A program made the position numbers and the translations under genes. This document shows positions 1,382 through 59,220 of a stretch of DNA of 64,000 nt, piece by piece. Below the pieces are notes generated by a model. That model made no database searches, was not told where the DNA came from, and saw only the letters and a list, made by a program, of their open reading frames with translations. Within the stretch, counting starts at the first letter, position 1, and each line of letters starts with the position of its first letter. This DNA is from Eledone cirrhosa (taxonomy: Eukaryota): positions 343,418,001 to 343,482,000 of the forward strand of contig OZ024743.1 in the NCBI GenBank assembly GCA_964016885.1, in the 5' to 3' direction.

Positions 1382-1509
<128 letters not shown>

Positions 1510-2807
1510 CTACAAGATAATTACCGACAGATGAGACTACGTATCTGTAGTAGTGTACATATACCAATATAAATTAATTGTTTCTACTTTTTGGCACAAG
1601 GCCAGCAATTATCTCAGTGTATTACTGGTACTTTATTTTATCGACCCCAAATTAATGAAAGCGTATATCGTAAGAGTATATATAATATACTCATTCACAA
1701 GATATTGAATACGTTATACGTGCTTGTCAATTGATTGTATACATGCTTAGAATATATACCAGTATATGTAATCATCTTTATAAGGGTTCATATACATGAG
1801 ATTATGTATGCATGGGTGGTATATATAGACTATACACATGGATTAAGATAAGCATGCCGATGCATGCATCATTAGCGAAGCAGTTAATGTGAGCAAGTTC
1901 TTTACACACTTAAAAGACGCTGTAATTATGAACTCCGTCATCGAAGACTGAAGAAAAAAGCAGAAATTGTGTTAATGTTGTCACGAGACGGACGAATGGA
2001 ACTTGTTGAAAGAATAACAAAAGTACAACGACCGGGTGAAATAATAATTACGACGATAATAACTACCCCTTTTTAGACTAGACACAAAGCCAATAGCTGA
2101 TTGAATCGATTCTTCATTTATCTGCTAGTGTTTCATGTATCGACCCATTGGTCGGAGTGAAAGATGAAGCCAACATTCCACTGTGTGTTGAACAATGTAA
2201 TGTCTAAATAGATACTGTAAAACATATAGACCGGCTTACAATAATGATTTTTAATGTAATATGAAGAATTATATTTATTTAAGAATGGGGAAAATAAATG
2301 AGGTTTGCGACATCCATGCCTTTCTAGAGAAGAGATAACCGAAACGGAGACGCAGAATCAGCAACCCGACTGTTATAATAATAGGAGACGGTGCTGGTAG
2401 CGGGGACAGGGAAACGTAATAAAATGATCGTAATTACGACGCCAGTAAGGTTTATGAATGTGATGATAATGCGACGATGAACGTGTGAACGGTGCCCGGA
2501 GAGATGAGGAAACGAACACACTAATGACAAAAACAACAACACGAGTACGAGTTAGGTGGTAGTGATGGTAACTGTGATGATATTGACAACAATACACGGG
2601 TCTCAAAGCAAAGGGAGGTAACTCGCTATCATGCTTTAATCAAAGCCATCCGCCCCACGCGCTACGTTCACCCACCACAAGACCACTAGCGACAATCTAT
2701 CGAGAATTACCACCACTCGTCGGATCGATGGTTAATTTGTCGGGATAACGGAGACGTTGGGGAGGAGAATGTTTATTCAATATATAGTGTGATAAAACAT
2801 AGCTTAC

Positions 2808-2897
2808 CTCAGTTTTAATTTCTCGAAGTAAATAATAAGTTACTCCGAACAGCCATATAATTCCGATGCCGAGCAGCAGGTGAAACCTCCTCCGCAT
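2808..2897 (-). CDS. GALNT2: First coding exon of a GALNT2-like polypeptide N-acetylgalactosaminyltransferase; gene continues beyond the left edge
   Basis: Encodes MRRRFHLLLGIGIIWLFGVTYYLLREIKTE, then the donor GAG|GTAAGC. Basic N-terminus plus type II TM helix with W..G..YY resembles the GALNT2/pgant2 N-terminus. CpG-rich, TE-free context. The catalytic domain is outside the window. Confidence 0.6.
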
Positions 2898-3760
2898 CCT
2901 GGTTGTGACTCCGATAGTTGTATTAACCACCGCCTCCCCATGCGAACATCGGACCTGCCGCTCCGCTACAAGATTTCAAACTCCGCCTAGATTTGTAACG
3001 AAAGTAGCTAATCGGAGCAGACTATGCGTGTTTGTTTTATTTATTTACTTGTTTGTTTAAATATTTAACCAATCAAAATCGTCCCAGCTAAGAAAAGGGG
3101 GAGGATAAAAAAAAGAAAAAAAAATATTAAATAAAAGACATAAATATAATTAAAATAAATAAGTATATAAATAAATAACCTAATAAACAAAAAGATTTGG
3201 TCAGAAAGTGTGTGAGTGGAGGCGCACTTGCGCTCTGCAATACTTCCGTTATGGAAGTTCATCGATGTCGCTGAGAAACATCAACTGAGAATGTGGAAGG
3301 TGGTGGTGATGACTAGCCAGACTCGTGTTAATTATATCCACATTGGGTCTCCATACCGTTTTTCCACCCTTACTTTCCTATTTCTCTTTATATCTCTTTT
3401 GATATACTGTCTGTGTGTGTTGGTATGTATGTAATGTGTGTGTATATATGTAAATATATATGTATAAATAAATAAACACATATATATACACATACACATC
3501 ATCATATCATTTTTATACCCGTTTTAAAAACGATGATATATATATATGTGTGTGTGTGTATGTATGTATATATATATATATATATATATATAAGACTTTT
3601 GTACCTCTGTTGTCTCCTTGAACTATACACACGTATATATAAAACCATGTGTATATAGCACACACAAACACACCCCCGTATCCTACCTATCTTCTCCCAA
3701 ACCCCCTTTCCTAATCTCACACTACTCCTACGTCCATCTGTTCTCCCCTTATCCGAACTT

Positions 3761-3839: not shown

Positions 3840-5720
3840 TCACAAAACTCACTTCCTACTCTCATTTTACTGGCAGCTCCTCTGTACATAGCTTGAATTC
3901 CTCTCATAAGCCATTCTCCTACACCTAATCTCCTTCAGGCCTTTTCTAGATCAACAAAAGCTAAATATAGTGGCTTATTTTTTGGTTAGGAATTTCTCTT
4001 GTAATTGCCTCACTAAGGAGAGGGCATCGGTAGTACTTTTCCCAGGCATGACACCAAACTGTATCTCATTTGATTTGACTCTTTCCCTAATTAGCTGCAC
4101 TCTAACTCCTATCACTTTCATGGTCCATTAGTTTTAATCCTCTGTAGTTGCTGCATTCTAGAGCATCACATGGTCCATTAGTTTTAATCCTCTGTAGTTG
4201 CTGCATTCTAGAGCATCACCTTTGCCCTTGTAGCAATTTATGATTGTACTGCTGTATTACCTGGTTGACTATGCAAGTTACTAGTTTGACTCCTACTTCT
4301 GATGCTTTTAGTATCTCAGCAACTATTTCTGATGGTCCCACAGCTTTACCATTCTTCATCTCTTTGATTGCTTCTTTGACTCTAAAGCTATCAACTTCAA
4401 TAGCTGGTTCTTCTGATAGGTATGTTGGAGGTAGTCTCTCTTCTTCCCATTCATTCTCTATGTTCATCATGCTCTCACAGTAACATTTCCAGGCCTCTTT
4501 CTTTTGGGCATCAGTGGTGCTAAGTGCACCAGTGTCATTTCTAACACATTTTTCCCCAACATATCTATTTACACAAACACACTGTCTTGCAATGCAGAAC
4601 ACTTCACATCTCTGATCCGCACATCTCAAGACATTGACAAACTTTCTTTTTTCAGCCACTTTCTGAGCTGTGTATATCTGTTGTTTAGCTTATCTCTTAG
4701 CTACCTAGTACTGGTCTCAGCTACCCCCATTTTTCCAGTCTTTCCATGCCTCTCTCTTGGCTTTAATGGTTCTATACACTGTGCTGTTCCACCACCAAGT
4801 TTCCTCAGTAGTTGTCATGTAGGAATTTCCAGTTGTCCTTTATGTTATATGTACCTAGCTTGTACCCTCATCTACTGCAGCCTGTAGGGTCTTTCTAAAC
4901 CTATATTGAGCTTCCACACCCTTCATCACCATATTTTTCTGCTTATCTTGTTCTGTCTTGTTTAATTTGATGTCGCTAATAACTAATTTATGTTAGGTCG
5001 TGCATTCTTCCCCAAAGAATGCTTTAGTGTTTATTACAGTCAGTTTATCTCATTATCTTACGATTAACCCATTAGCAATCACATTACTCTATATATACTA
5101 TTATATTTTCATGGTAAAGGCTTTACCTCACATAATATCGAATCTATGAGATTTTGAAAGTATTTATTTTGAGAACAATACCTTAACATCAGTTTGAGTG
5201 ACCAGTTACAGCCAGTTTCAACAGAAAAAGAATTCTAGCTGGTTTTGGCCGGTTTGAATATTAAAGGATTAAGTAATCAATTTGGCCTGTGTGTTTACCT
5301 GACTGATATGAGATCAGGTGACTGGCTGGCTGGTTTCCTGAAATTTGTGTTGCAAATGGTTAGTTTATTTTTGTCACAGAATTCCAGAAGCCTCAATCCT
5401 TCTTCATTTCTTAAGCCATAGCCACAGAATCCATCCTCGTATTGCTCCACATGTCCATCAAAGTCGCCTGCCAGGATGATGAGGTTTCTTTCATCAATAC
5501 CTGAAGTTGTCTGTAAAAGTTCCTCATAGAACCTGTTCTTTTGGCCTTTACTTAGTCCTGCTTGTGGAGCATGTGTAGATGTGCCACCATTCTATTTCCT
5601 ACAGTTATTCTAAGCTTGATGATTCTATCACTTACTCTAACTACCTCTATTACCTTATCTATCCATTTCTCAGCTACTAACATGCTTACAGTGTTCACGC
5701 CTGTCCCCTGCAGTTGTTTT
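3840..5720 (-). mobile_element. Decayed RTE-clade LINE (EN-RT), with a MITE at 5064-5272 and a 50-bp tandem duplication at 4119-4218
   Basis: ORF fragments such as KEAWKCYCESMMNIENEW and EMKNGKAVGPSEIVAEILK; GDFDGHV endonuclease-like segment. Confidence 0.8.
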
Positions 5721-5771
5721 TGATCGGAGTCACTGCGCTTTCTCTCTCTCTCCCTCTTATATATATATATA

Positions 5772-6192
5772 TATTAGGATTGGTGCTCTGAAATAGCAAT
5801 GTATACATGAATGTATGTATAGTATATTTGGCAATATACCGTATGTTTAATTAAAAACATTTAGAAGACCATACGCTATCATTTTAAAGTAGTGACTATG
5901 TCACTTCTTTTCAACGAAAGAAGGGAGAGAAGCTGACAGTCTGTTTCATGCTGGTTGGCGTTCATCAGAGCCACGTACTCCCCTGCTTTCACCAAAAATT
6001 ATAGAAGCTGGATTCTTATAGAATTCCAGTACTAATCAAGAGCTGATTATACAGAGCGATTGCTGGTCCAGCAAAAATTAGGTATTAGGATTGGTGCTCT
6101 GAAATAGCGATGTATACATGAATGTATGTATAGTATATTTGGCAATATACCGAATGTTTAATTAAAAACATTTAGAAGACCATACGCTATCA
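5772..6192. repeat. 110-bp direct repeat (5772-5881 and 6083-6192), period 311 bp, flanking a hammerhead
   Basis: Near-identical copies TATTAGGATTGG...CATACGCTATCA. Confidence 0.9.
5931..5972 (-). ncRNA. Minimal type I hammerhead ribozyme motif
   Basis: Minus strand reads GGCT-CTGATGA-ACGCCAACCAGCAT-GAAAC-AGACT-GTC-AGCT: both core boxes, GUC cleavage triplet, 4-bp stem I, near-palindromic stem III. Confidence 0.7.
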
Positions 6193-6405
6193 GTTTTATA
6201 TATATATAATTCAGTTTTATATATATATAATTCAAGGGTAAGAAATTGTCTAGACAAGTTATCCACATATGCATGTTTATACAATAATATAGGTGCAATA
6301 ACATACGAAGATCTAAGAGTAAAGTTGTTAGAAGATCGATTCTTACCATCCATATACATATATAAATCAACTTACTTAAATATGGTAAAATTCCGAAATT
6401 TCAAT

Positions 6406-6482
6406 ATTTCTTACAGCTGTTTCATGAGTGCAAGAGAAATGGAAGGAACCATAAGATGAAACACTCAATCATCAGTAGAAAT
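6406..6482 (-). ncRNA. Type I hammerhead ribozyme motif
   Basis: Minus strand reads ATTTCTA-CTGATGA-TTGAGTG...CACTCAT-GAAAC-AGCT-GTA-AGAAAT: core boxes, 6-bp stem II, palindromic stem III ACAGCTGT, GUA site. Confidence 0.72.
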
Positions 6483-6847
6483 TCATCTTCCTAAATGCAT
6501 TAGAGATGACCAGTTACTATAGATTCAAAAGAGTATCTGAACGCACATGATGAGGAATGTACTAATAATTGTTTCTACTTTGGGCACAAGGCCAGCAATT
6601 ATCCCAGTGTATTACTGGTACTTTATTTTATCGACCCTTTAAGGATGAAAGGCAAAGTTAACCTCGGCGGGATTTGAACTCAGCGCCATAACTCTTTGCT
6701 GCAAAGCATGGTGTCTGACCCTCTACCGATACTGCCAATCAACAATATGCGGGTACAAACAGGCCAACGTGAACGCTAGAAATAGCAGTGAGTTTGGTCT
6801 AAAATGAATCAGCTCGACTAAAATTTATTGTTAGGAGCAGAAGCACA

Positions 6848-7209
6848 TATATTATAAGATTGATTAATATGTAAAATTATTAATCATATTGTCTGACAAA
6901 TGTATAGGTTAACCAAAGTACTAAAAATAGTCACTATTAGAACCTAAAGTCAGCTTTACTGATATAAAATTTAAGAATTTCCATTCAGAGCAGTTACACA
7001 ATAATTCAAGGGTAAAAAATTGTCTAGACAAATGTATCCACATATGTGTGTTTGTACAATAATATAAGAATATTTGTGTAACTCTTAAATTTTATATTTG
7101 TAGTGCTGACTTTAGGTTCTAGCAGTGACTATCTGTAACATTTTGATTAACCTATACTTTTGTCAGACAATGATTGATAATTTTATGTATTAATCAATAT
7201 TTTAATATA
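6848..7209. repeat. Imperfect inverted repeat with ~125-bp arms; Penelope-like non-autonomous unit
   Basis: 6848-6976 matches the reverse complement of 7083-7209; spacer 7002-7068 repeats 6228-6292. Confidence 0.8.
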
Positions 7210-7619
7210 TATATATTTTTTGTTTTATTTTATAGATAATCTAATCCCTACTGTGGTAGTACAATGATCTGAATCTAGTGGGAAGAAAGAGTTATAATCT
7301 TCACAGTTCATTGCACTATTTTTCCACTTCTTTTTTATTAAAATATGATCAAGTTGACATTGGGCACCATTTGGATATTTAACCCTTTAGCATTTACATT
7401 ACTCTATATATACTATTATATTTTCATGGTTAATGCTTTATCTCACATAATATTGAATCTATGAGATTTTGAAAGTATTTATTTTGAGAACAATACCTTA
7501 ACATCAGTTTGAGTGACCAGTTACAGCCAGTTTCAACAGAAAAAGGGGAGAATTCTGGCCGGTTTGAACATTAAAGGGTTAAATATCCATGACTTTCTTG
7601 GTTTTTCTCATACTTATCT

Positions 7620-15029: not shown

Positions 15030-18000
15030 ATTAGTTTTTCGCTTCTGTAGTTGCTCCTTTCTAGACCATGACCTTTCGCTTGTAGAAAGATAATACTACA
15101 AAGCCAGTCATTGTGTATGACTCCTTGGATAACCTGACTAATAACGAGTTCGACTCCTACTTCACCAGGTCATTTAAGTGACTGTCCACCAGCTTTTCCA
15201 TCTCCTTGAATGCAGTTTTGAGCCTATAACTGTTAACTTCCATAACCATTCTCTGTTAAGTTTACACCCATTCTCTACATTTATCAACCTCTAGTAATAA
15301 CATTTCCAGGTCTCTTTCTTTTGAGCATCATTAAGGTTAAGTGCTCCGATGTCATTCGGAACACTTTTCCTCAACGGCATCTTGATTCACACCGATACAA
15401 TGCTTTGCAATGCAGAACATCTTCCGCCTCTGATCCCCATGTCGCAGAATGTTGGCAAACCTGTTTTCAGCTTCTTTATGTGTTATGTAAAAGCTGGTGT
15501 CTAACTTCTCTTTTAGCGATTTGATATTGTTCTTTGCTGTTACCATTTTTACAGTCTTTCTACACCTGTCTCTTAGCTTTAATGGCTCTGTCTACAATGC
15601 TGTTCCACAACTATATCACCCTTTGTCCGGTTGGCACCTTGCTCCAGCCACTAGTCTTGTCAGTGGCCTACAGTAGGTTGTCTTGTAAAAACTTCCAATA
15701 GTACTCTACGTCATATGAGTTCATCTCCTCCCTCTGATCATATGCATCACATAGCATATTCCGATACCAATATTTAACAGAAAGGTCCTTTAGTTTCCAC
15801 ACTCCCTCTTCTGAATATCCTGTGTTTTTATTTTGTCTAGTTCTTATGTTGTCACTAATAACTGGGTATTGCATTTCTCTCTTGGAAAAGACTTAGCATT
15901 CACAATCACATATCTATCTTGATTTCTAATGAGCATGAAATCTTATATTCACCTGAATGATAGGTGATCAAGTGGTAAGCCGGTTCTCTGAAGTTATTGT
16001 TACAAATGGTTATTTGCATCATTGAATTCCAGGAGCATTGGTTGCTCTTCATTTCTTGAACCATATTCATAACCACCAGGCACTCCAAAGTAACTACCTG
16101 GGTGCTGCCCAATATGTCCATTGAAGTCACCAGCCAGGATAATGAAATCACTGTTATAGAAAATTATTCTTTACCTAACCCAGTGCATAAGTGGAGATAA
16201 CAGTTGTCATTCTTGTGGGAGGGGGGATTGCCGGAAGTGGGGGAACGCCTGACTGGAAGCAGAAGGACAGGGGCGACTCGAGGGATAAGGCCGTGAACAG
16301 CCCTCTTAGCTACAGGCCCAGCAAGGTGACGGATGTGTGAAGACAGATGCGAGTGGAAAGTACCCCACGTTGACGGTGGAACCTGCGATAGAGAGACGCG
16401 TCCGAATGCCTCCGGCTACAAGCTATTTCGGCGTTTAATGAATTTTCCTATCTTTCGGCATTCTTACACCCGGCACGGTAGCCTTTTAGTTTACCTTTTT
16501 TTTAAAAATCTTTTTTTGTTCTTTTTCGTGAGGTATCGTTGTTGATTTTTTTCAGATCTCGCAGGGGAGATGGCGGCGAAACTGAGATTGAATAGCGATG
16601 AGCATGAGCGAGCTCGTCGCACAGACCCGTGTAATAACATAGGACACGAGGTGGAGTGTTGCAGCGCTGGCAGCGACGGAAGCCCATGGCAGTCGACAGC
16701 GACCGACGTATAACGAAAGGAGACCAGCCGCTGTGAATAGTCGTCCGCGTGCGTTTGGAGGCCGGTGCTTCAGGTGCCAGGGCCCGCATATGGCAAGGGA
16801 CTGCAGAGAGCCGAAGCCAGCCATAGTCTGCTATCGCTGCAAGCGACCAGGCTACATCGCTAATAATTGCGACCAGGCAAATGGTCTAAGGGGGACTATT
16901 GCACCGGTAGCCACCCCCGGAAGCGAGTAGAGGCGCCTTTGCAGTTGCTGCCCGTAGTGGAAGGGGTAGGGGTCCACCGCGAGCACTTGTGACCATGAAG
17001 GTGGTTAAAAAGTGGAGCGGGATGGGCAGTCGACGGCAGGGAGATTAGATGCTGAGGTACCAGCGAGTTGTCAATAGTGGTACGGGGAAAATTAGGCTTC
17101 GGCGATCGTTATTGACCAGGTGGTGAACGGAATCGATGTAGTAATGGGCATGAAAGCGATTGGCTGGGAGAATCCATGAAGAAAATATCATACAGGACAA
17201 GGATTTCAGGGCGGTGTTCGATGGGCAGTGGTGGGTAGTTGAGTGGTACTGGATGGGAGATCCACCAGCGCTGAAGAATAGAGTAAGGCTGCTATCAGCA
17301 TACCCTGAAAGGAAATGCCAGAAGCGAGTTTGATGGAGAGGTACAGAGATGGATCGAGGAGGGTATACTTATTCCTTGGAAGGAGGAAGAGAAGTGTGGA
17401 GAGTTTCCGCTGATGGCAGTGGTGCAGCCCACGAAGAACAAGGTTAGGCCGGTGCTGGACTTTCGTGAGCTGAACGAACACATGTCATGCCACACAAGTG
17501 GTGAGGACAGTGGCCATGATGCAGGAAATCGTGGAGAAGGTAAAAGCGGATAACCCAGCTGGTACGTCCCCAAATCGGAGAGCAGGACCGTATGGTGTGA
17601 TGCCAGCAGCATAGCACTAGGGGTCACTCTGGAGATAGGGGGTGTCGAGGTTGAGGACGCAGTTTGGCTCTGGAAGGAGGACTACAACCACATGGCCGAA
17701 CTGAATGCTGTGCTGAGAGGGGTGAATCTCGCCCTGAGATGGGGGCTGCACACTATAGAAATTCGAACTGACTCGGCCACTGTACTTGGATGGGTGAGAT
17801 CAGTGCTTACCAGTGAGAGGAGGGTGCGAACGAGAGGGGCAGCAGAAATGTTGATAAAGCACCGCCTGGGAACTCTGGAAGAGCTGTCTACTGAGTTTGG
17901 CCTGGAGTTGAGTGTAGCTTTTGTACCCTCAGAAAAACAGGGCAGACGTATTAACCAGGATGAAGAAAGTCTGCCTGGAAATGCCAGGGGACGCAGAGGA

Positions 18001-19300
18001 GGGGATAGCGGCAGTGTGTCGGCTGAGTGATTTGGAGTTGAGGGGACTGCACACCATGCACCACATGGGAGTAAATAGGACCCTGTTCCTAGCCAGAAGA
18101 ATCGACTCTGACGTTAACAGACAGTGTCCAGAGAGTGGTCGGAGGTTGCGACAGATGCCAGTCTATTGACCCTGACCCGGGTGTGCACGAGACAGGAAGC
18201 ATCCCGGTGGAGCACAACTGGAAGCGATTAATGGTGGACGTGACACACTACCGACAAGGAACGTATCTTTTGATGGTCGATTGTGGGTCGGGACGGATGG
18301 CGATATGGAGGGAAATGAAAACAGGGACTGCGGAGGAAATCGTGTGAACGCTGAGAGAGATGTTTCGCTTGGAGGCACTGAGGGAAATGCCTAACAAGTG
18401 GAAGGTGAACCGCTTCTTCAGAGCGGCATACAGGCCGAGCAGAAATGGGATTGTGGAGAAACACCATCGCATGATCAAGGCTATGGCGGAAAGGGGGCAT
18501 ATTTCGCCAATGGAGGCAGTGTTCTGGTACAACATGTCTCCTCGGGTGGGACAGGGCAATATATAGATATGAATGGCGACACCCATGCACAGTACCACAG
18601 CAGCCAGTGGAGAGAGAGAGCCCATCCGTACGAGTGGGTGAAGAGGTATGGGTCAGGCCCCCGAATGCGCATTGCACATCTCAATGGGGAAAGTACCCCA
18701 AACAGTGCAGAGATCGCAACGGAGTCGCTGCCAATCTAGGTAGATGGCGCAGTGTGATGGGGGGATTGATCCTTGAGATCGGGTGCCGTGTGGGGCTGCG
18801 GTGAGATAGAGGGGGGTGTAGAGCTGCTGTGGGAGGGGGATGCCTGACCGGAAGCAGGAGGATGGGGGCGACTTGAGGGAGCAGGCCATGAACAGCCCTC
18901 TCTTAGCTACAGGCCCTGCAAGGTGACGGACATGTGAAGACAGCCACGAGTGAAAAGTTCTCCACATGGACGGTGGTACCAGCGATAGAGAGACACAAGG
19001 TAAGTCCGAATGCCTCCGGCTACAATTCTATAACGTATGACTATTCTGAATTTGATAATTTTATCTTAATTACCTTAACTCTACTTTTCAGCTGGTAAAA
19101 TGTCCACTTCACGTAGCCCATCATCATTTCCTACTGAAAAGAGCTTTTAACTGTGTTCTTTGCCTGTAAGGAGTCTGGCTGATGCTATCCTCTTGTATGC
19201 AACACACAGCCACTAGTCTCTTCTAAACATCTACCTCATCTACCTTTCAGCAAGCCAATGTTAAGATTGTTAGCCCTGAAATGTGTTACATTACAGTAAT
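15030..19300 (-). mobile_element. Decayed RTE LINE split by an LTR element
   Basis: Flanks 15030-16213 and 19030-19300 are collinear with the RTE at 3840-5720. Confidence 0.7.
16214..19024 (+). mobile_element. Gypsy-type LTR retrotransposon, internally deleted; LTRs 16214-16420 and ~18828-19024; TSD ATTCT
   Basis: TGT...ACA LTRs; gag zinc knuckles CFRCQGPHMARDC and CYRCKRPGYIANNC; RT piece VRPVLDFRELN; RNase H WCDAS/AELNAV/TDS; integrase HHCC region and NGIVEKHHR; RT-RH-IN order. Confidence 0.92.
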
Positions 19301-49188: not shown

Positions 49189-50971
49189 CACCATGTAACA
49201 AAAAAATTTTTTTCTCTGTTCCTGGCTTGTAATCACTTTTTTTGTGTTGTTTAGGTCCCAAATAAATAAAAAAAGTGCTATTAAACAGTTAAAAGTTTGG
49301 GTTTGTATAAATACTAAGCTATTCACTAGAATTATTTGTATGCTGGATTTTACGTTGTATGTAAGTTTAATTTGCTGATGTTAAATGATTTTTTTTTATA
49401 TATGTTTCAGGTTAAATTAAAATTATAAAATAAAGAATAATACCTAAAGAAAATTATAAAAGTGCAATAAAGTATAAAATTGTTAAAAAGTGGATTAAAG
49501 AGATTTATTGATACTGGGGTACCAGAAAAAGTTCCTCACTTCCCAAACCAAAAAGAAGTCAATGACTTGGTCAGGGATATGGGTCTGACCAAGTCCAATG
49601 TAGAGCTATTCGTCTCCAGGATGAAGCAGTGGAACTTGGTCAAGGAGGAAGTGCAGGTGACTAGTCAGAGAAGTCGACACGAACCTTTCTCAGGCTTTTA
49701 CACTCTTAGGGATGGCCTCTGCTTCTGCCATGACGGGCTTGGACTGTTTGACGTTATTGGGGTGTCGTTTGTGCCCAAGGAGTGGCGGCTATTTATAGAC
49801 AGCTCCACCACATGTTTGAAGGCTGTCCTCCTCCACAATGGAAACAAGTTCCCGACACTGCCCCTAGCTCATTCAGTCTGCCTGAAGGAAGATTACTACA
49901 GTGTGAAAGTCCTCTTGGAAGCTCTGCAATACAAACAGTACAATTGGGAAATCATTGGAACCTTCAAGATGGTGGCTTTCCTGCTTGGACGCCAAGGAGG
50001 CTTTATCAAATTCCAATGCTTCCTCTGCCTTTGGGACAGCAGAGCCACCTCTGACCACTACAAAAGAAAGAACTGGGAGCAGCGAACAGAATTTGTAGTT
50101 GGGACCTGGAACGTCATGTGGGAGCTACTGGTTGATCCCAGGATTGTGCTCATGCCACCACTGCACATTAAGTTGGGGTTGATGAAGCAGTTTGTGAAGG
50201 CTCTCAACCAAGAATCAGCCGCTTTTAAGTACCTTCTTGAGTTCATCCCCAAGTTATCTGAGGCCAAAATCAAAGGTGAAATTTTTGTTGGACCACAGAT
50301 AAAGAAGGTGTTTGAGTCTACCGAGTTCTCCAATAAGCTCAATAGGATTGAGAGAACAGCATGGAACTGTTTCAAGGCAGTTGTTAAGAGCTTCCTGAGC
50401 AACTACAGAGCTGAAAACTACCAGCAACTGGTGCAGGATCTGATAAAGGCTTTTGGCGCCATGGGATGCAGGATGTTGCTTAAACTCCATATGCTGGACG
50501 CTCACCTGGAAAAATTCAAGGACAATATGGGCGCCTACTCAGAAGAACAAGGCGAACGATTCCACCAAGATGTGAAAGAGATAGAGTGGAGGTACCAGGG
50601 CCACTACAATGAAAAAATGATGGGGGACTATATCTGTAGGCTAGTGTGGGAATGCGACCTGGACTACAACCGCAAATCCAGTCATTTCTGACATGTATAA
50701 GTTGCTTTATAAGTGTTATTTGTTTTTACTTGTTTGCTTTTGATAAGCTTGTGTAATAAAATAAATATATACTCTGTTGATTTAATTATATGAACTGATA
50801 AATTTTTTTTAAATGTGTTTTTTGTTGAAAAATATGAAAATTTCGAAATATCAAACTCCTGACCACAAACCCAAACTTCTGATTAAATAATAGTGTTTTT
50901 TTAATAATAATGGGATATAATAAACCAGTAATTGACACTTAGAACCGGGGAACAAAAAATGTTACACAGTG
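49189..50971 (+). mobile_element. DNA transposon with TIRs and a ~400-codon open transposase ORF (49480-50691); family often labelled TcMar-m44
   Basis: TIRs CACCATGTAACA..TTTTT..GTTCC / GGAACAAAAAATGTTACACAGTG; motifs WRLFIDSS, CFLCLWDSR, LHIKLGLMK, SEEQGERFHQD. Confidence 0.85.
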
Positions 50972-55550: not shown

Positions 55551-57200
55551 TAATAATAATAATAATAATGAAATTATTGTGTAAAGTGCTCAGGTGCGCT
55601 ACAACTCGTCAAAGGTGTATGTATAGTACATAGAATAATACAAAAATGTCAGGGAAGTACATGTGTGTATGTGTTAGCTGTAGTGTTAGCGGATCTCGGG
55701 AAGCATGGTGCCTTAAAGGATGCAGTGTCTCGACAGCCAACAACTGATGCAGGTAGTTTGTTCCATGCTTCAGCAACTCTGAGCGTGAAAAAATGTTTCC
55801 GAAAGTCATGGGAACTGTGGTGTTTTCTTACTTTGTGGGCATGTCCACGTGTGTTAGACACATGGAAATCAAAAAGGTACTCAGGGTTGTTGTTGGCAAC
55901 ATGGTTAACAATTTTGTGGGTGTTTACCAAGTCAGTTGCCAGGCGTCGGAGCTTCAATGTATCCATGCCCAGGGAAGCAAGGCGCTCAGAGTATGGTAGA
56001 TGCCTGATGGAGGGTATTCGCTTGGTTGCACATCTCTGAACAGTTTCCAGGAGGTCAATGTTCTGAGCAAGATAGGGGTTCCAGACTGGTGATGCAAATT
56101 CTAAGTGTGCTCGCACCATAGCCATGAACAGCCTTAAATAGATATCTGGAGAGCGGCTGACAAAGGTCTTGCTGAGTGGTGCTAACACCCTCTTGACAAT
56201 TTTAGAGACGTGCTTCGTCCAACGCAAATCGCTGCTGACCGTAATGCCCAGGTCATGTTCACAAGAAGACTTCTTGATATTAGTGCTGTGGAGGGAGTAT
56301 GTGGACGCTGGGTTTTTACTCCCAAAATGCATGGTGGTGCACTTGTCCACAGCTAGCTTGAGTTGCCAGTCTGAGATCCATTGTTGCATTGTATCCAGGT
56401 CAGACTGCAAGCAAGATCTATAGTGTTCAGGATCTGTCCTTTTTATCTCAAGGTACAGCTTGATGTCGTCTGCGTACTTTAGTACTGTGGCATTCTTTAA
56501 GTTGGCATCTATGTCATTAATATATGCCACAAACAAAAGGGGACCAAGAACAGATCCCTGTGGTACACCAGATGACATCTCATATGGTGAGGAATGCTGT
56601 CCCAGAACCGTGACTACCTCTCTTCGACTGAGAATGAAGGACTTGACACCCATTGCAGAGAGTTTTGCCATAAGTCTTTTGTGTGGCACAGAATTGAAGG
56701 CTTTCGCAAAGTCAAGGTAAACAACATCCACCCATGAGCCGCCATCAGTGATCCGGGTGATGTCCTCAAGAAACTCTATAAGTTGATCACAGCAGCTGGA
56801 GTTGGGGATAAATCCAAATTGCGAGGGCCGGATAAGACTGTGAGAGCTCCAGAAGTTCCAAAGTGTTTCTCTGACACAGGATTCCATCAGTTTGGCGATG
56901 CAACTAGTAAGACTGACTGGACGATAGTTCACAGGTGATGTGCGGTCACCCTTTTTGAAAAGAGGAATGACACTGGCAGTTTTCCACTGTTCTGGAGTAG
57001 CACTGTTGTTCAGACAGAATTGGAAGAAGCGTGATAACTGGTGCAGAAGGGAGTACCCACCATGTTTAAGAAGCAGGTACGTAACACCATCAAGACCAGG
57101 AGAGGCATGGTTGCGTTTATTTTTTAGGTGACGTCGCAGCATTGCAGGTGTAAATTCCATGGTTGTAATAGAGTCCGGTGTCATAGGTAGTGGAGATGGT
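55551..57200 (-). mobile_element. 5'-truncated CR1/L2-group LINE with an open RT ORF and (ATT)n tail
   Basis: 524-aa ORF with NYRPVSLTS, YLDFAKAF, SGVPQGSVLGP, YADD and FTLRVAEAWNKLP. Confidence 0.92.
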
Positions 57201-57421
57201 ACACTCTGGCACAAGGCCAGCAATTTGAAGTCGATTAAATCGACTCCAGTGCATTACTGGTACTTTATTAACGACCCGGTAAAGATGAAAGGCAAAGCGG
57301 GATTTGAACTCTGATCGTAAATATATAATAATTGTTTCTACTTTTGGCACCAGGCCAGCAATTATCCCAGTGTATTACTGGTACTTTATTTTATCGACCC
57401 CGTAAGGATCAAAGGCAAAGT

Positions 57422-58040
57422 TATAATAATAATAATAATAATGCTTTCTTTATTAACCACAAAGGTTTACATAAAGTAGACATTAAGGACAATACAGGAC
57501 AGTACAAATGGGCATTTCTGCGTGTAAAAAAAACAAAAACAGGATGTAACAAAAAAATAACAATGAAAAATTCCCCAATATGGGGGAAACTTCTGAGGGA
57601 CATTCGTGGAGAAAGCCCATTAAAAAACCACAGTGACCCTGACCACCAGGGCAAGTGCCCTCTCCCAGTTTTCCACCTTTAATATACAGACACATACTCA
57701 GTTGGGCCATTCTTGCCTCTCTCACCCATCTTTCAACAAAATGCTGGGAAGAGAGCACTTCCCTCTCTACCCTGATTTTCATTTTCAAATGAAATTTGAA
57801 AAAGTTAATCAGGGCATCACCGAAGAGGTAAGTGCTCGTCTTCAGCCCTTTCAAACGTGTCCACCTTACTATCTCTTTCGCCATGGCCACCAGACAGATA
57901 AAAACTGCCTGCCCTTCCCGGCTAAAGGAAGAGGGCGGGGCAATCCTCACGATGGACTCAGCTGATAGCTGGATCCGTCCTACATGGGACAGCAGGTGTT
58001 CGATATAAACCCACAATTCAGCAATGCTCGGACACTGGAC
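57422..58040 (-). mobile_element. L1/Tx1-like LINE 3' end
   Basis: CPSIAELW...LINFFKFHLKMKIRVERE...FVERW C-terminus, U-rich UTR, (ATT)n tail. Confidence 0.65.
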
Positions 58041-59220
58041 GATAATAATAATAAGCTTGTTCTCATATTTTGATGGGCAGTTAGAACATATTAATTTTCT
58101 GTCAAAATTTCTTGTATGAAAAGAGATATAATAATACAATGCTAACAGAACGAAAGCACAAACAAATATAATATAAAGGAAAGGGAAAGGGAAAACGGAA
58201 AAAAAAAACGAAAGGAAAAGAAAGCGAAAAAAGACAAAAAAAAACACACATCTGGTACCATATACAACAAAAGGACAACCGAGCTGCTACCAGAGTAAAA
58301 GGTAACAGTATCGCAAGGAGCACTGGGAAACCTCTCTAAAGATTTTTGAAGCAAGCCAGCACGCTCATCATTGGGTGATGGTGAGGCTGGTGCGCCCTCT
58401 CTGTTAGTAGTCCAATTTCTCCAAATGTCTCGAACGCCACAGGCTGGAAAATGTAGTTGGCTGACAGATCACGTATTTTAAGATTTTGTTCTGTTTGGCT
58501 GTGGAAACTGTAGCTCTTGCCCTAACCACAGCATCCAGGATGTAGAAAGAAGCAAAAGAGTTTCTAACTATCCCAGACAAGGTATCTGCCTCTCGACCAG
58601 GGGCACAGGGTAAGGCTGTCAGGTCTTTTCCCATCACTTCTGGACATCCCAGATGGTTCCAAGATTGAGGGGATGTTTGCCCGGGTCAAAGATCTCTTGA
58701 GAATAAGGTTTTTTTATGAAGGTGGGGTGGTCATCGTTGTAGTGGAGTTCAACAGGCCAAGATTCAATTGATTCCCTATAAAATTCTTTTTCTATTCATA
58801 ATAATAGTCTAGCTGGCATTTTTGTTGTGTGTATGTGTGCATTTGGGTGGCGTTCTATTATGTCAAAAGTTGTTTTCAGGGTTTGTGAAAATAGCTAGGG
58901 GTGGATATAGAATTTCTTTTGTTTTGTGGTGGGTGTGTGCATGAGGTTTCCTTGTGTCAAGAGATCAAGATTATTTCTAGGGTTTGCAGACAAAAGCAAG
59001 AAGGAAAGTAAAAATGAAAATACAAATATAGGTATAAACATGATTGAAAAGAGTCTGAGGGGGGGGGGTTACAAAGAATAGGTTTCTGAAGGATTTATAG
59101 AAAAAAAAAGAAAGGAAAAAAGGGTTTTAGTAGAGGTTTCCTTGGAGTTATGATTTATATATATTATATATATGTATATATATATACATATATATTATAT
59201 ACACATGTATGTATATATAT

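Follow-up and report, generated by a model that had tools for sequence, protein, structure and literature searches.

The 425-nt insertion on the minus strand of positions 5772-6196 of the window (the whole 64,000-nt stretch of Eledone cirrhosa DNA analysed here, whose numbering is used throughout) is probably a solo, slightly decayed offspring of a non-LTR retrozyme family. The likely template was a circular or multimeric RNA whose cleavage site was still intact, and Penelope-like enzymes probably carried out the reverse transcription and the insertion into (TA)n. A first-pass annotation of the same DNA had proposed a non-autonomous, ribozyme-bearing element of the retrozyme or Penelope kind, and every test run is consistent with that proposal. 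The insert is likely a further member of the known non-LTR retrozyme kind, not a new kind. The coordinates of its features are collected in Table 1.

Table 1. Features of the hammerhead-bearing insertion and its junctions, in window coordinates.
Feature	Position	Strand	Basis
Entire insertion, equal to 1.37 copies of a non-coding 311-nt monomer with 36.7% GC	5772-6196	-	
Full 311-nt unit; predicted strongly self-paired circle	5772-6082	-	
5' partial copy, 114 nt; better paired of the two copies; putative reverse-transcription end	6083-6196	-	
3' copy of the 114-nt repeat; bears both fold-weakening substitutions	5772-5885	-	
Canonical type I hammerhead with its extension, a 17-bp distal helix I (5995-5978 with 5927-5911)	5911-5995	-	
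UAC bulge of loop 1, located as in the HH9 consensus; tertiary contact with loop 2 predicted	5975-5977	-	RF02275 alignment
Core box CUGAUGA (C3-A9)	5962-5968	-	sequence
Helix II: A10.1-U11.1, C·A mismatch, G-C, C-G; loop 2 CAACCA (5957-5952)	5948-5961	-	
GAAA box (5947-5944) and helix III, 3 bp plus 3-nt loop, in a 9-nt near-palindrome	5936-5947	-	
GUC triplet (GUC = 5937-5935); predicted cleavage between 5935 and 5934	5934-5937	-	sequence, RF02275 alignment
(TA)n at 3' junction, 3-nt overlap with element end; putative priming site	5758-5774		
5' junction: (TA)6 within a perfect 21-bp duplication joining element end and target	6190-6234		

The hammerhead presents the CUGANGA, GAAA and NUH elements of the core, all in order, with an open-ended helix I that defines it as type I. 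In proximal helix I, 5972-5969 pair with 5934-5931; five of the six helix I positions are paired, the exception being a U·U, as are three of the four positions of helix II. In the RF02275 alignment the UAC bulge and the 6-nt loop 2 sit where the consensus has them. Canonical animal hammerheads have been described as combining a 6-bp helix I, a 4-bp helix II and loop-loop contacts, and the minimal hammerheads of Penelope-like elements (PLEs) as having a helix II of 7-8 bp preceded by an additional base, with loop 1 poorly defined (PMC4209133). Judged by its sequence, the motif is canonical, not minimal. The first-pass annotation had placed the minus-strand core (5931-5972) and the GUC ending at 5935 exactly, but its comparison with minimal hammerheads does not hold for a geometry of six helix I positions plus a UAC bulge, four helix II positions and a 6-nt loop.

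A type I descriptor allowing one mismatch in helix II, without which the real site is missed, finds one match in the window, against a mean of 0.063 matches per shuffled window (300 block-shuffles), and a stricter descriptor, written after the site had been seen, finds none in the 300 shuffles. A relaxed descriptor that includes minimal forms reveals no second hammerhead in the window. Rfam yields no match at gathering score in the whole window, and, at E values of up to 10 in positions 5000-7000, no hammerhead and two chance snoRNA matches. A search restricted to 106 nt does align the motif with HH9 (RF02275) over model positions 1-77 of 77 (20.1 bits, E 0.0045); the check with Rfam models suggested for this site thus returns a full-length alignment at a score below the gathering value of 52, and the E value, scaled to 64 kb, becomes about 2.7, so that the match lacks significance for the window as a whole. 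Scores short of gathering (27-38 bits) are also obtained for natural hammerheads from loci unrelated to the insert. The hammerhead call rests on a combination of evidence: the descriptor match, unique in the window; the UAC bulge, loop 2 and distal helix, which lie outside the loose descriptor and yet match HH9; and a position inside the only such partial tandem of the window.

The insert is built as a partial tandem. Its direct repeats (5772-5885 and 6083-6196) are 114 nt long, 97% alike and spaced by 311 nt, with mismatches at 5798/6109, 5842/6153 and, at the junction, 5882/6193. The 110-bp repeats, the 311-bp period and the arrangement of one monomer plus a partial second reported earlier are thus borne out at slightly greater repeat length, as is the claim that the unit holds no credible ORF, since even in a concatemer the longest ATG frames are of 28 aa (sense) and 18 aa (antisense). 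Over the 110-nt repeat stretch there are two substitutions, which, under the substitution calibration of PMC13282606 (available text) and if the repeat copies started identical, date the insertion to some 2.5 My (0.3-9). Both substitutions weaken predicted helices, both in the copy at 5772-5885, and one corresponds to CpG decay. The 110-nt repeat (5792-5880 and 6103-6191, minus strand) matches one predicted folded domain almost exactly, and the 5' stop of the insert corresponds to the base of the closing helix of that domain.

The low Rfam scores, lack of significance at window scale and the 6% chance per window of a match to the loose descriptor are compatible with a chance hammerhead likeness in an unrelated repeat, or in a TRIM-like mini LTR element with 110-bp LTRs, whose TG start the minus-strand repeat shares. 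Such an element would nonetheless be expected to show further hallmarks: the repeat has no CA end, no PBS- or PPT-like sequence is seen at either repeat border on inspection of both strands, and ARAGORN reports no tRNA-like part in the insert, which by this criterion is no tRNA-derived SINE either. With the stricter descriptor silent on all shuffles, features that were not searched for matching HH9 and the sole hammerhead match lying in the sole such tandem of the window, a chance origin appears extremely improbable.

The insert occurs in a single copy in the 64-kb window, and no relatives were found in the window, in phages or in plasmids. A hammerhead pattern scan of prokaryotic genomes recovered 10 loci, none of them related to the insert (best E 0.3). 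A bacterial promoter scan gave two sites against 3.2 expected, under a bacterial model that is not relevant to this host. Among prokaryotic records, a ~1-kb repeated unit with a hammerhead in each copy (L001:976-1075 and L010:976-1075; 86% alike, 6.6 kb apart) lies on one Nitrospirales MAG contig; two type III hammerhead matches, below gathering, occur ~530 nt apart on a Saccharibacteria MAG contig (L005:448-502 and 976-1040); and a well-formed type I hammerhead, also below Rfam gathering, is present in a Stappiaceae MAG record (L004:995-1072).

In its general properties the insert resembles a non-LTR retrozyme: the unit is non-coding, its 311 nt (within 150-450 nt), low GC content (36.7%, below 50%) and canonical type I motif agree with the description of these elements in PMC7229834 (available text), it shows no LTR, PBS or PPT, and its predicted circle is highly self-paired. 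An active retrozyme has been defined by at least two consecutive ribozyme-bearing units, and solo monomers constitute a frequent class of retrozyme offspring (10.64898/2026.07.22.740005); positions 5772-6196 contain one ribozyme and fall outside the definition of an active element. With one ribozyme only, the locus cannot excise a monomer or release a circle, and circles could come only from other family copies; it is likely inert. The earlier suggestion that the partial tandem may yield circular RNAs could thus apply only to other copies, not to this one.

The junctions may indicate how the insert arrived. Both ends abut (TA)n, an outcome with a chance of about 0.003 per end given 25 other such tracts in the window, and the 5' end meets its tract through a short T/A-rich overlap inside the 21-bp duplication. 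This perfect duplication (6190-6234) may be a templated insertion made during end joining. The cleavage site lies inside the insert, with 163 nt on its 3' side and 262 nt on its 5' side. Because the insert spans it, a cleaved linear monomer cannot have been the template, and the RNA template, if there was one, was a circle or an uncleaved multimer. Of the unpaired runs in the predicted circle, the longest (21 nt, 62% A+C, unpaired probability 0.91) contains the 3' junction, which ranks fifth in accessibility among the 311 positions for either way of cutting the unit. PLEs show a preference for (TA)n (available text of PMC8557442 and its preprint), and PLE biochemistry has revealed AT-rich nicking, an internal AC-rich start and a preference for uncleaved RNA (PMC11167929). 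The PLE of that study primes without target homology, whereas the insert has a 3-nt overlap.

The same junctions could have arisen if a long autonomous PLE had left two of its 3' ends one after the other, 5'-truncated to 114 and 311 nt and both begun at a single internal site, in which case the 311-nt length would be an accident of truncation and the hammerhead a pLTR ribozyme. PLEs typically insert into microsatellites as partial tandems that are truncated at the 5' end (PMC8557442 and its preprint, available text), the one PLE tested starts reverse transcription at fixed internal sites ~90 nt downstream of its hammerhead (PMC11167929), and both repeat copies of the insert have a common 3' end, with a 6-nt duplication at the internal junction. 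This account is nonetheless unlikely, if far from negligible, on three grounds. First, animal PLE hammerheads have been described as minimal and devoid of loop-loop contacts, and the motif at 5911-5995 is canonical. Second, modelling has one end of the 311-nt unit pair with the other (6057-6052 with 5790-5785, probability 0.89), as in a self-contained unit. Lastly, there is no reading frame in the unit, and no PLE domain (RT or GIY-YIG) is recognised in the insert or, against Pfam, among 142 of the 163 window frames of at least 75 aa, the other 21 being mostly low-complexity or overlapping recognised LINE/LTR remnants. The 6-nt duplication (6072-6089) contains TTAGG pentamers exactly at the internal junction, at the point equivalent to the 3' end of the insert. 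A telomere-targeting, EN-minus PLE was considered on account of these two TTAGG and discarded, as there is no TTAGGG and TTAGG occurs 91 times in the window.

A partial tandem might also have been produced at the DNA level, through reduction of a longer retrozyme array by deletion or through local duplication of a solo hammerhead repeat, and in that event the junctions would be uninformative on reverse transcription. The surroundings are indeed rearranged, with a LINE endonuclease remnant on one side, a MITE interior piece on the other and the 21-bp duplication at one junction. Both ends, however, meet (TA)n cleanly, and the 3' end coincides with one of the most accessible parts of the RNA, which a DNA event would not favour; an origin of this kind is hence regarded as quite improbable. 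The reading of the insert as the offspring of a non-LTR retrozyme, copied from an RNA of more than one unit's reach, is the one pursued below.

A retrozyme cycle comprising multimer transcription, cleavage, RtcB ligation and reverse transcription of the circle by PLE enzymes has been proposed (available text of PMC7229834), and Octopus vulgaris has 31 recently active Penelope-like families (PMC13282606, available text). For the insert, a corresponding course can be outlined, each step of which is inferred and none observed. Master loci elsewhere, with two or more units, would be transcribed, and their hammerheads, probably dimerising through the palindromic helix III, would release 311-nt monomers that an RtcB-type ligase would circularise. 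A PLE endonuclease would then nick (TA)n, and the freed 3' end would prime on an AUA that lies 163 nt 3' of the cleavage site, in the only long loop that the RNA leaves single-stranded. The reverse transcriptase would pass the intact cleavage site and copy more than one unit, from a circle or an uncleaved multimer, and the resulting end would finally be joined to (TA)n through microhomology.

Several features suggest that the hammerhead of this copy has degenerated. Helix II is closed by an A-U in place of the G10.1-C11.1 pair, termed highly conserved in PMC4209133 and present in all four loci with a perfect helix II among the 10 prokaryotic loci fetched. Cricket hammerheads show compensatory changes at 10.1-11.1 (PMC2837043, available text), and the pair is typical of hammerheads, not absolute. 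The context of the C·A mismatch in helix II is consistent with CpG decay. In fold energies, which leave out tertiary contacts, the active monomer fold (-15.7 kcal/mol) lies 8.3 kcal/mol above an inactive rod (-24.0 kcal/mol) in which the core pairs with the palindrome, and helix I has a pair probability of 0.01; closing helix II in the computation does not abolish the gap. Among four natural motifs folded as controls, the minimum structure of L004 is the type I active form and those of L001 and L010 are not. This hammerhead copy is accordingly predicted, from modelled structures, to have little or no cleavage activity as a monomer.

The dimer idea put forward in the first-pass annotation, based on a palindromic helix III, finds backing in computed energies only: the near-palindrome is more stable as a self-duplex (-6.9 kcal/mol) than as a hairpin (+2.1 kcal/mol), and modelling thus points to an arrangement that would favour double hammerheads. 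The double hammerhead (-42.5 kcal/mol) comes closer to its reference, two free monomers (-48.0 kcal/mol), but the best dimer fold (-52.5 kcal/mol) is still lower by 5.0 kcal/mol for each ribozyme. In Xenopus, one of nine predicted dimers cleaved in vitro (10.64898/2026.07.22.740005). The 311-nt circle is predicted to fold with -70.9 kcal/mol and 60% of its positions paired (z -2.7), two of 200 shuffles being as good, and the linear unit has a z of -3.7, with one of 100 shuffles as good. The antisense circle also beats shuffles (z -2.2), so the fold alone does not pick the strand.

Seven nucleotides of the repeat, at 5785-5791 (minus strand), are perfectly complementary to the helix I/core stretch (5965-5971). 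As a firm feature this anti-core complement was rejected, given shuffle probabilities of 0.04 for the core and 0.30 for any ribozyme part and the absence of the pairing from the predicted ensemble, where 5785-5791 pairs with 6052-6057 instead. A monomer-circle lock as a trait of this retrozyme family is a doubtful conjecture: the 5' arm of the helix III palindrome, predicted to pair with the core (5969-5966 with 5943-5940, probability 0.94), would block it together with the 7-nt anti-core, and only a dimer, by engaging the palindrome, would free it. The ends of the insert would, on this view, be the trace of a Penelope-like enzyme that copied the circle in rolling fashion, always setting out from one single-stranded loop. 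If true, the lock would explain how animal retrozyme circles escape self-cutting, and the junction signature would show the mobiliser.

The insert is most likely intergenic, among decayed transposons. On one flank, what is left of a decayed LINE endonuclease matches Exo_endo_phos_2 below the cut-off (E 1.8e-4), and on the other lies a 65-bp piece of MITE interior (6227-6291), which recurs from a MITE-like element with long inverted repeats at 6847-7210. The idea that the neighbouring LINE uses the ribozyme for 5' processing was dismissed, as a microsatellite intervenes and the LINE frame begins inside the endonuclease. Elsewhere, the window contains a GC-rich, decayed LTR-retrotransposon-like remnant (16643-19027; zinc knuckle, RNase H-like), a 534-aa LINE reverse transcriptase frame (55649-57253) and two long open frames with no Pfam match, probably transposon remnants (49471-50691, plus strand, 406 aa; 57483-58286, minus strand, 267 aa).

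Two genes flank the insert on its own strand. A NEMP-family gene with seven coding exons runs from 51146 to 24437 on the minus strand, as established with Argonauta and metaclust proteins after a first NEMP protein search at near lengths had given no match, and one of its exons is 84% identical to an Argonauta hians protein, which points to an octopod as the probable host. Downstream, a 30-codon signal-anchor first exon (2897-2808, minus strand) lies inside a CpG-rich stretch (~1500-3500). The GALNT2-like identity given to this exon in the first-pass annotation is not confirmed, the 30-aa exon having no match in 1.84 billion representatives and none at 0.9 or above in Atlas, and neither is the proposed tie between the element and the exon, given that the insert lies ~2.3-2.8 kb upstream of the CpG-rich stretch, among decayed transposons. 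The shared strand would nevertheless allow a domesticated ribozyme, cutting read-through RNA of the upstream NEMP gene or shaping transcripts of the downstream signal-anchor gene, and HH9-like hammerheads have been domesticated in amniote introns (available text of PMC6155905). Same-strand orientation, however, has a chance of 1/2, 18 kb separate the hammerhead from the final NEMP coding exon, the CpG-rich stretch around the downstream exon does not reach it, and a young insertion with two substitutions in 110 nt and decayed helices is the opposite of a conserved motif. Domestication is thus very hard to credit.

The insert would extend the non-LTR retrozymes, known from corals, mussels and salamanders, to the cephalopods. 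Literature searches returned no description of a cephalopod retrozyme, although supplementary family lists may include mollusc or cephalopod families, and the available main text of PMC7229834 makes no mention of cephalopods. In the giant squid, 235 Hammerhead_1 loci have been counted (PMC6962438, available text), and retrozymes in cephalopods are hence to be expected. The single locus matters little in itself, being probably an inert repeat in transposon-rich intergenic DNA. Its useful part is the clean junctions, since a copy of more than one unit, lying between (TA)n and starting in an open loop of the predicted circle, would be expected if PLEs mobilise retrozymes, a model that is still unproven.

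The insert can be compared with four described groups. With the plant LTR retrozymes it shares direct repeats around a non-coding centre, a hammerhead and a non-autonomous nature, but these elements carry type III ribozymes in both ~350-bp LTRs, a PBS, a PPT and a 4-bp TSD (PMC7761336, available text), whereas the single type I ribozyme of the insert lies outside its repeats and no PBS, PPT or TSD is seen. The HH9 family and the satellite hammerheads of schistosomes, newts and cave crickets have the same core, a four-position helix II with a 6-nt loop and a UAC bulge six positions before the core (PMC6155905 and PMC2837043, available parts). Unlike HH9, the motif departs from the standard at three positions of helices I and II, in addition to its score of 20.1 bits against 52, and, unlike both HH9 and the satellite hammerheads, it resides in a young mobile insertion, not in a conserved intron or a long satellite array.

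The likeness to the PLE pLTR hammerheads involves a partial tandem with a common 3' end, a (TA)n target and a palindromic, dimer-suited helix III (PMC4209133; available text of PMC8557442), as well as a type I hammerhead upstream of an internal AC-rich start (PMC11167929). In contrast to PLEs, the insert has no recognised RT/GIY-YIG frame, inverted copy or 30-40-bp tail, and, in contrast to minimal PLE hammerheads, helix II has four positions with no extra base, and loop 1 is defined within 5911-5995. Two short motifs of the insert are absent from the available supplement text of PMC8557442, which constitutes a weak test.

The metazoan non-LTR retrozymes, finally, provide a match by layout and motif, not by sequence comparison with described families. 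The insert departs from them in having 1.37 units, one ribozyme and an A-U-closed, mismatched helix II, and a core-blocking monomer fold of the kind predicted here is reported in the available text of PMC7229834 only for some mussel circles. On the other hand, it shares with them a non-coding unit of ~300 nt with a GC content below 45%, and a canonical type I hammerhead whose helix III is short (PMC7229834, available text; 10.64898/2026.07.22.740005). It likewise shares the lack of LTR, PBS and PPT, a self-paired predicted circle and an intergenic location, and solo offspring are a known class among these elements.
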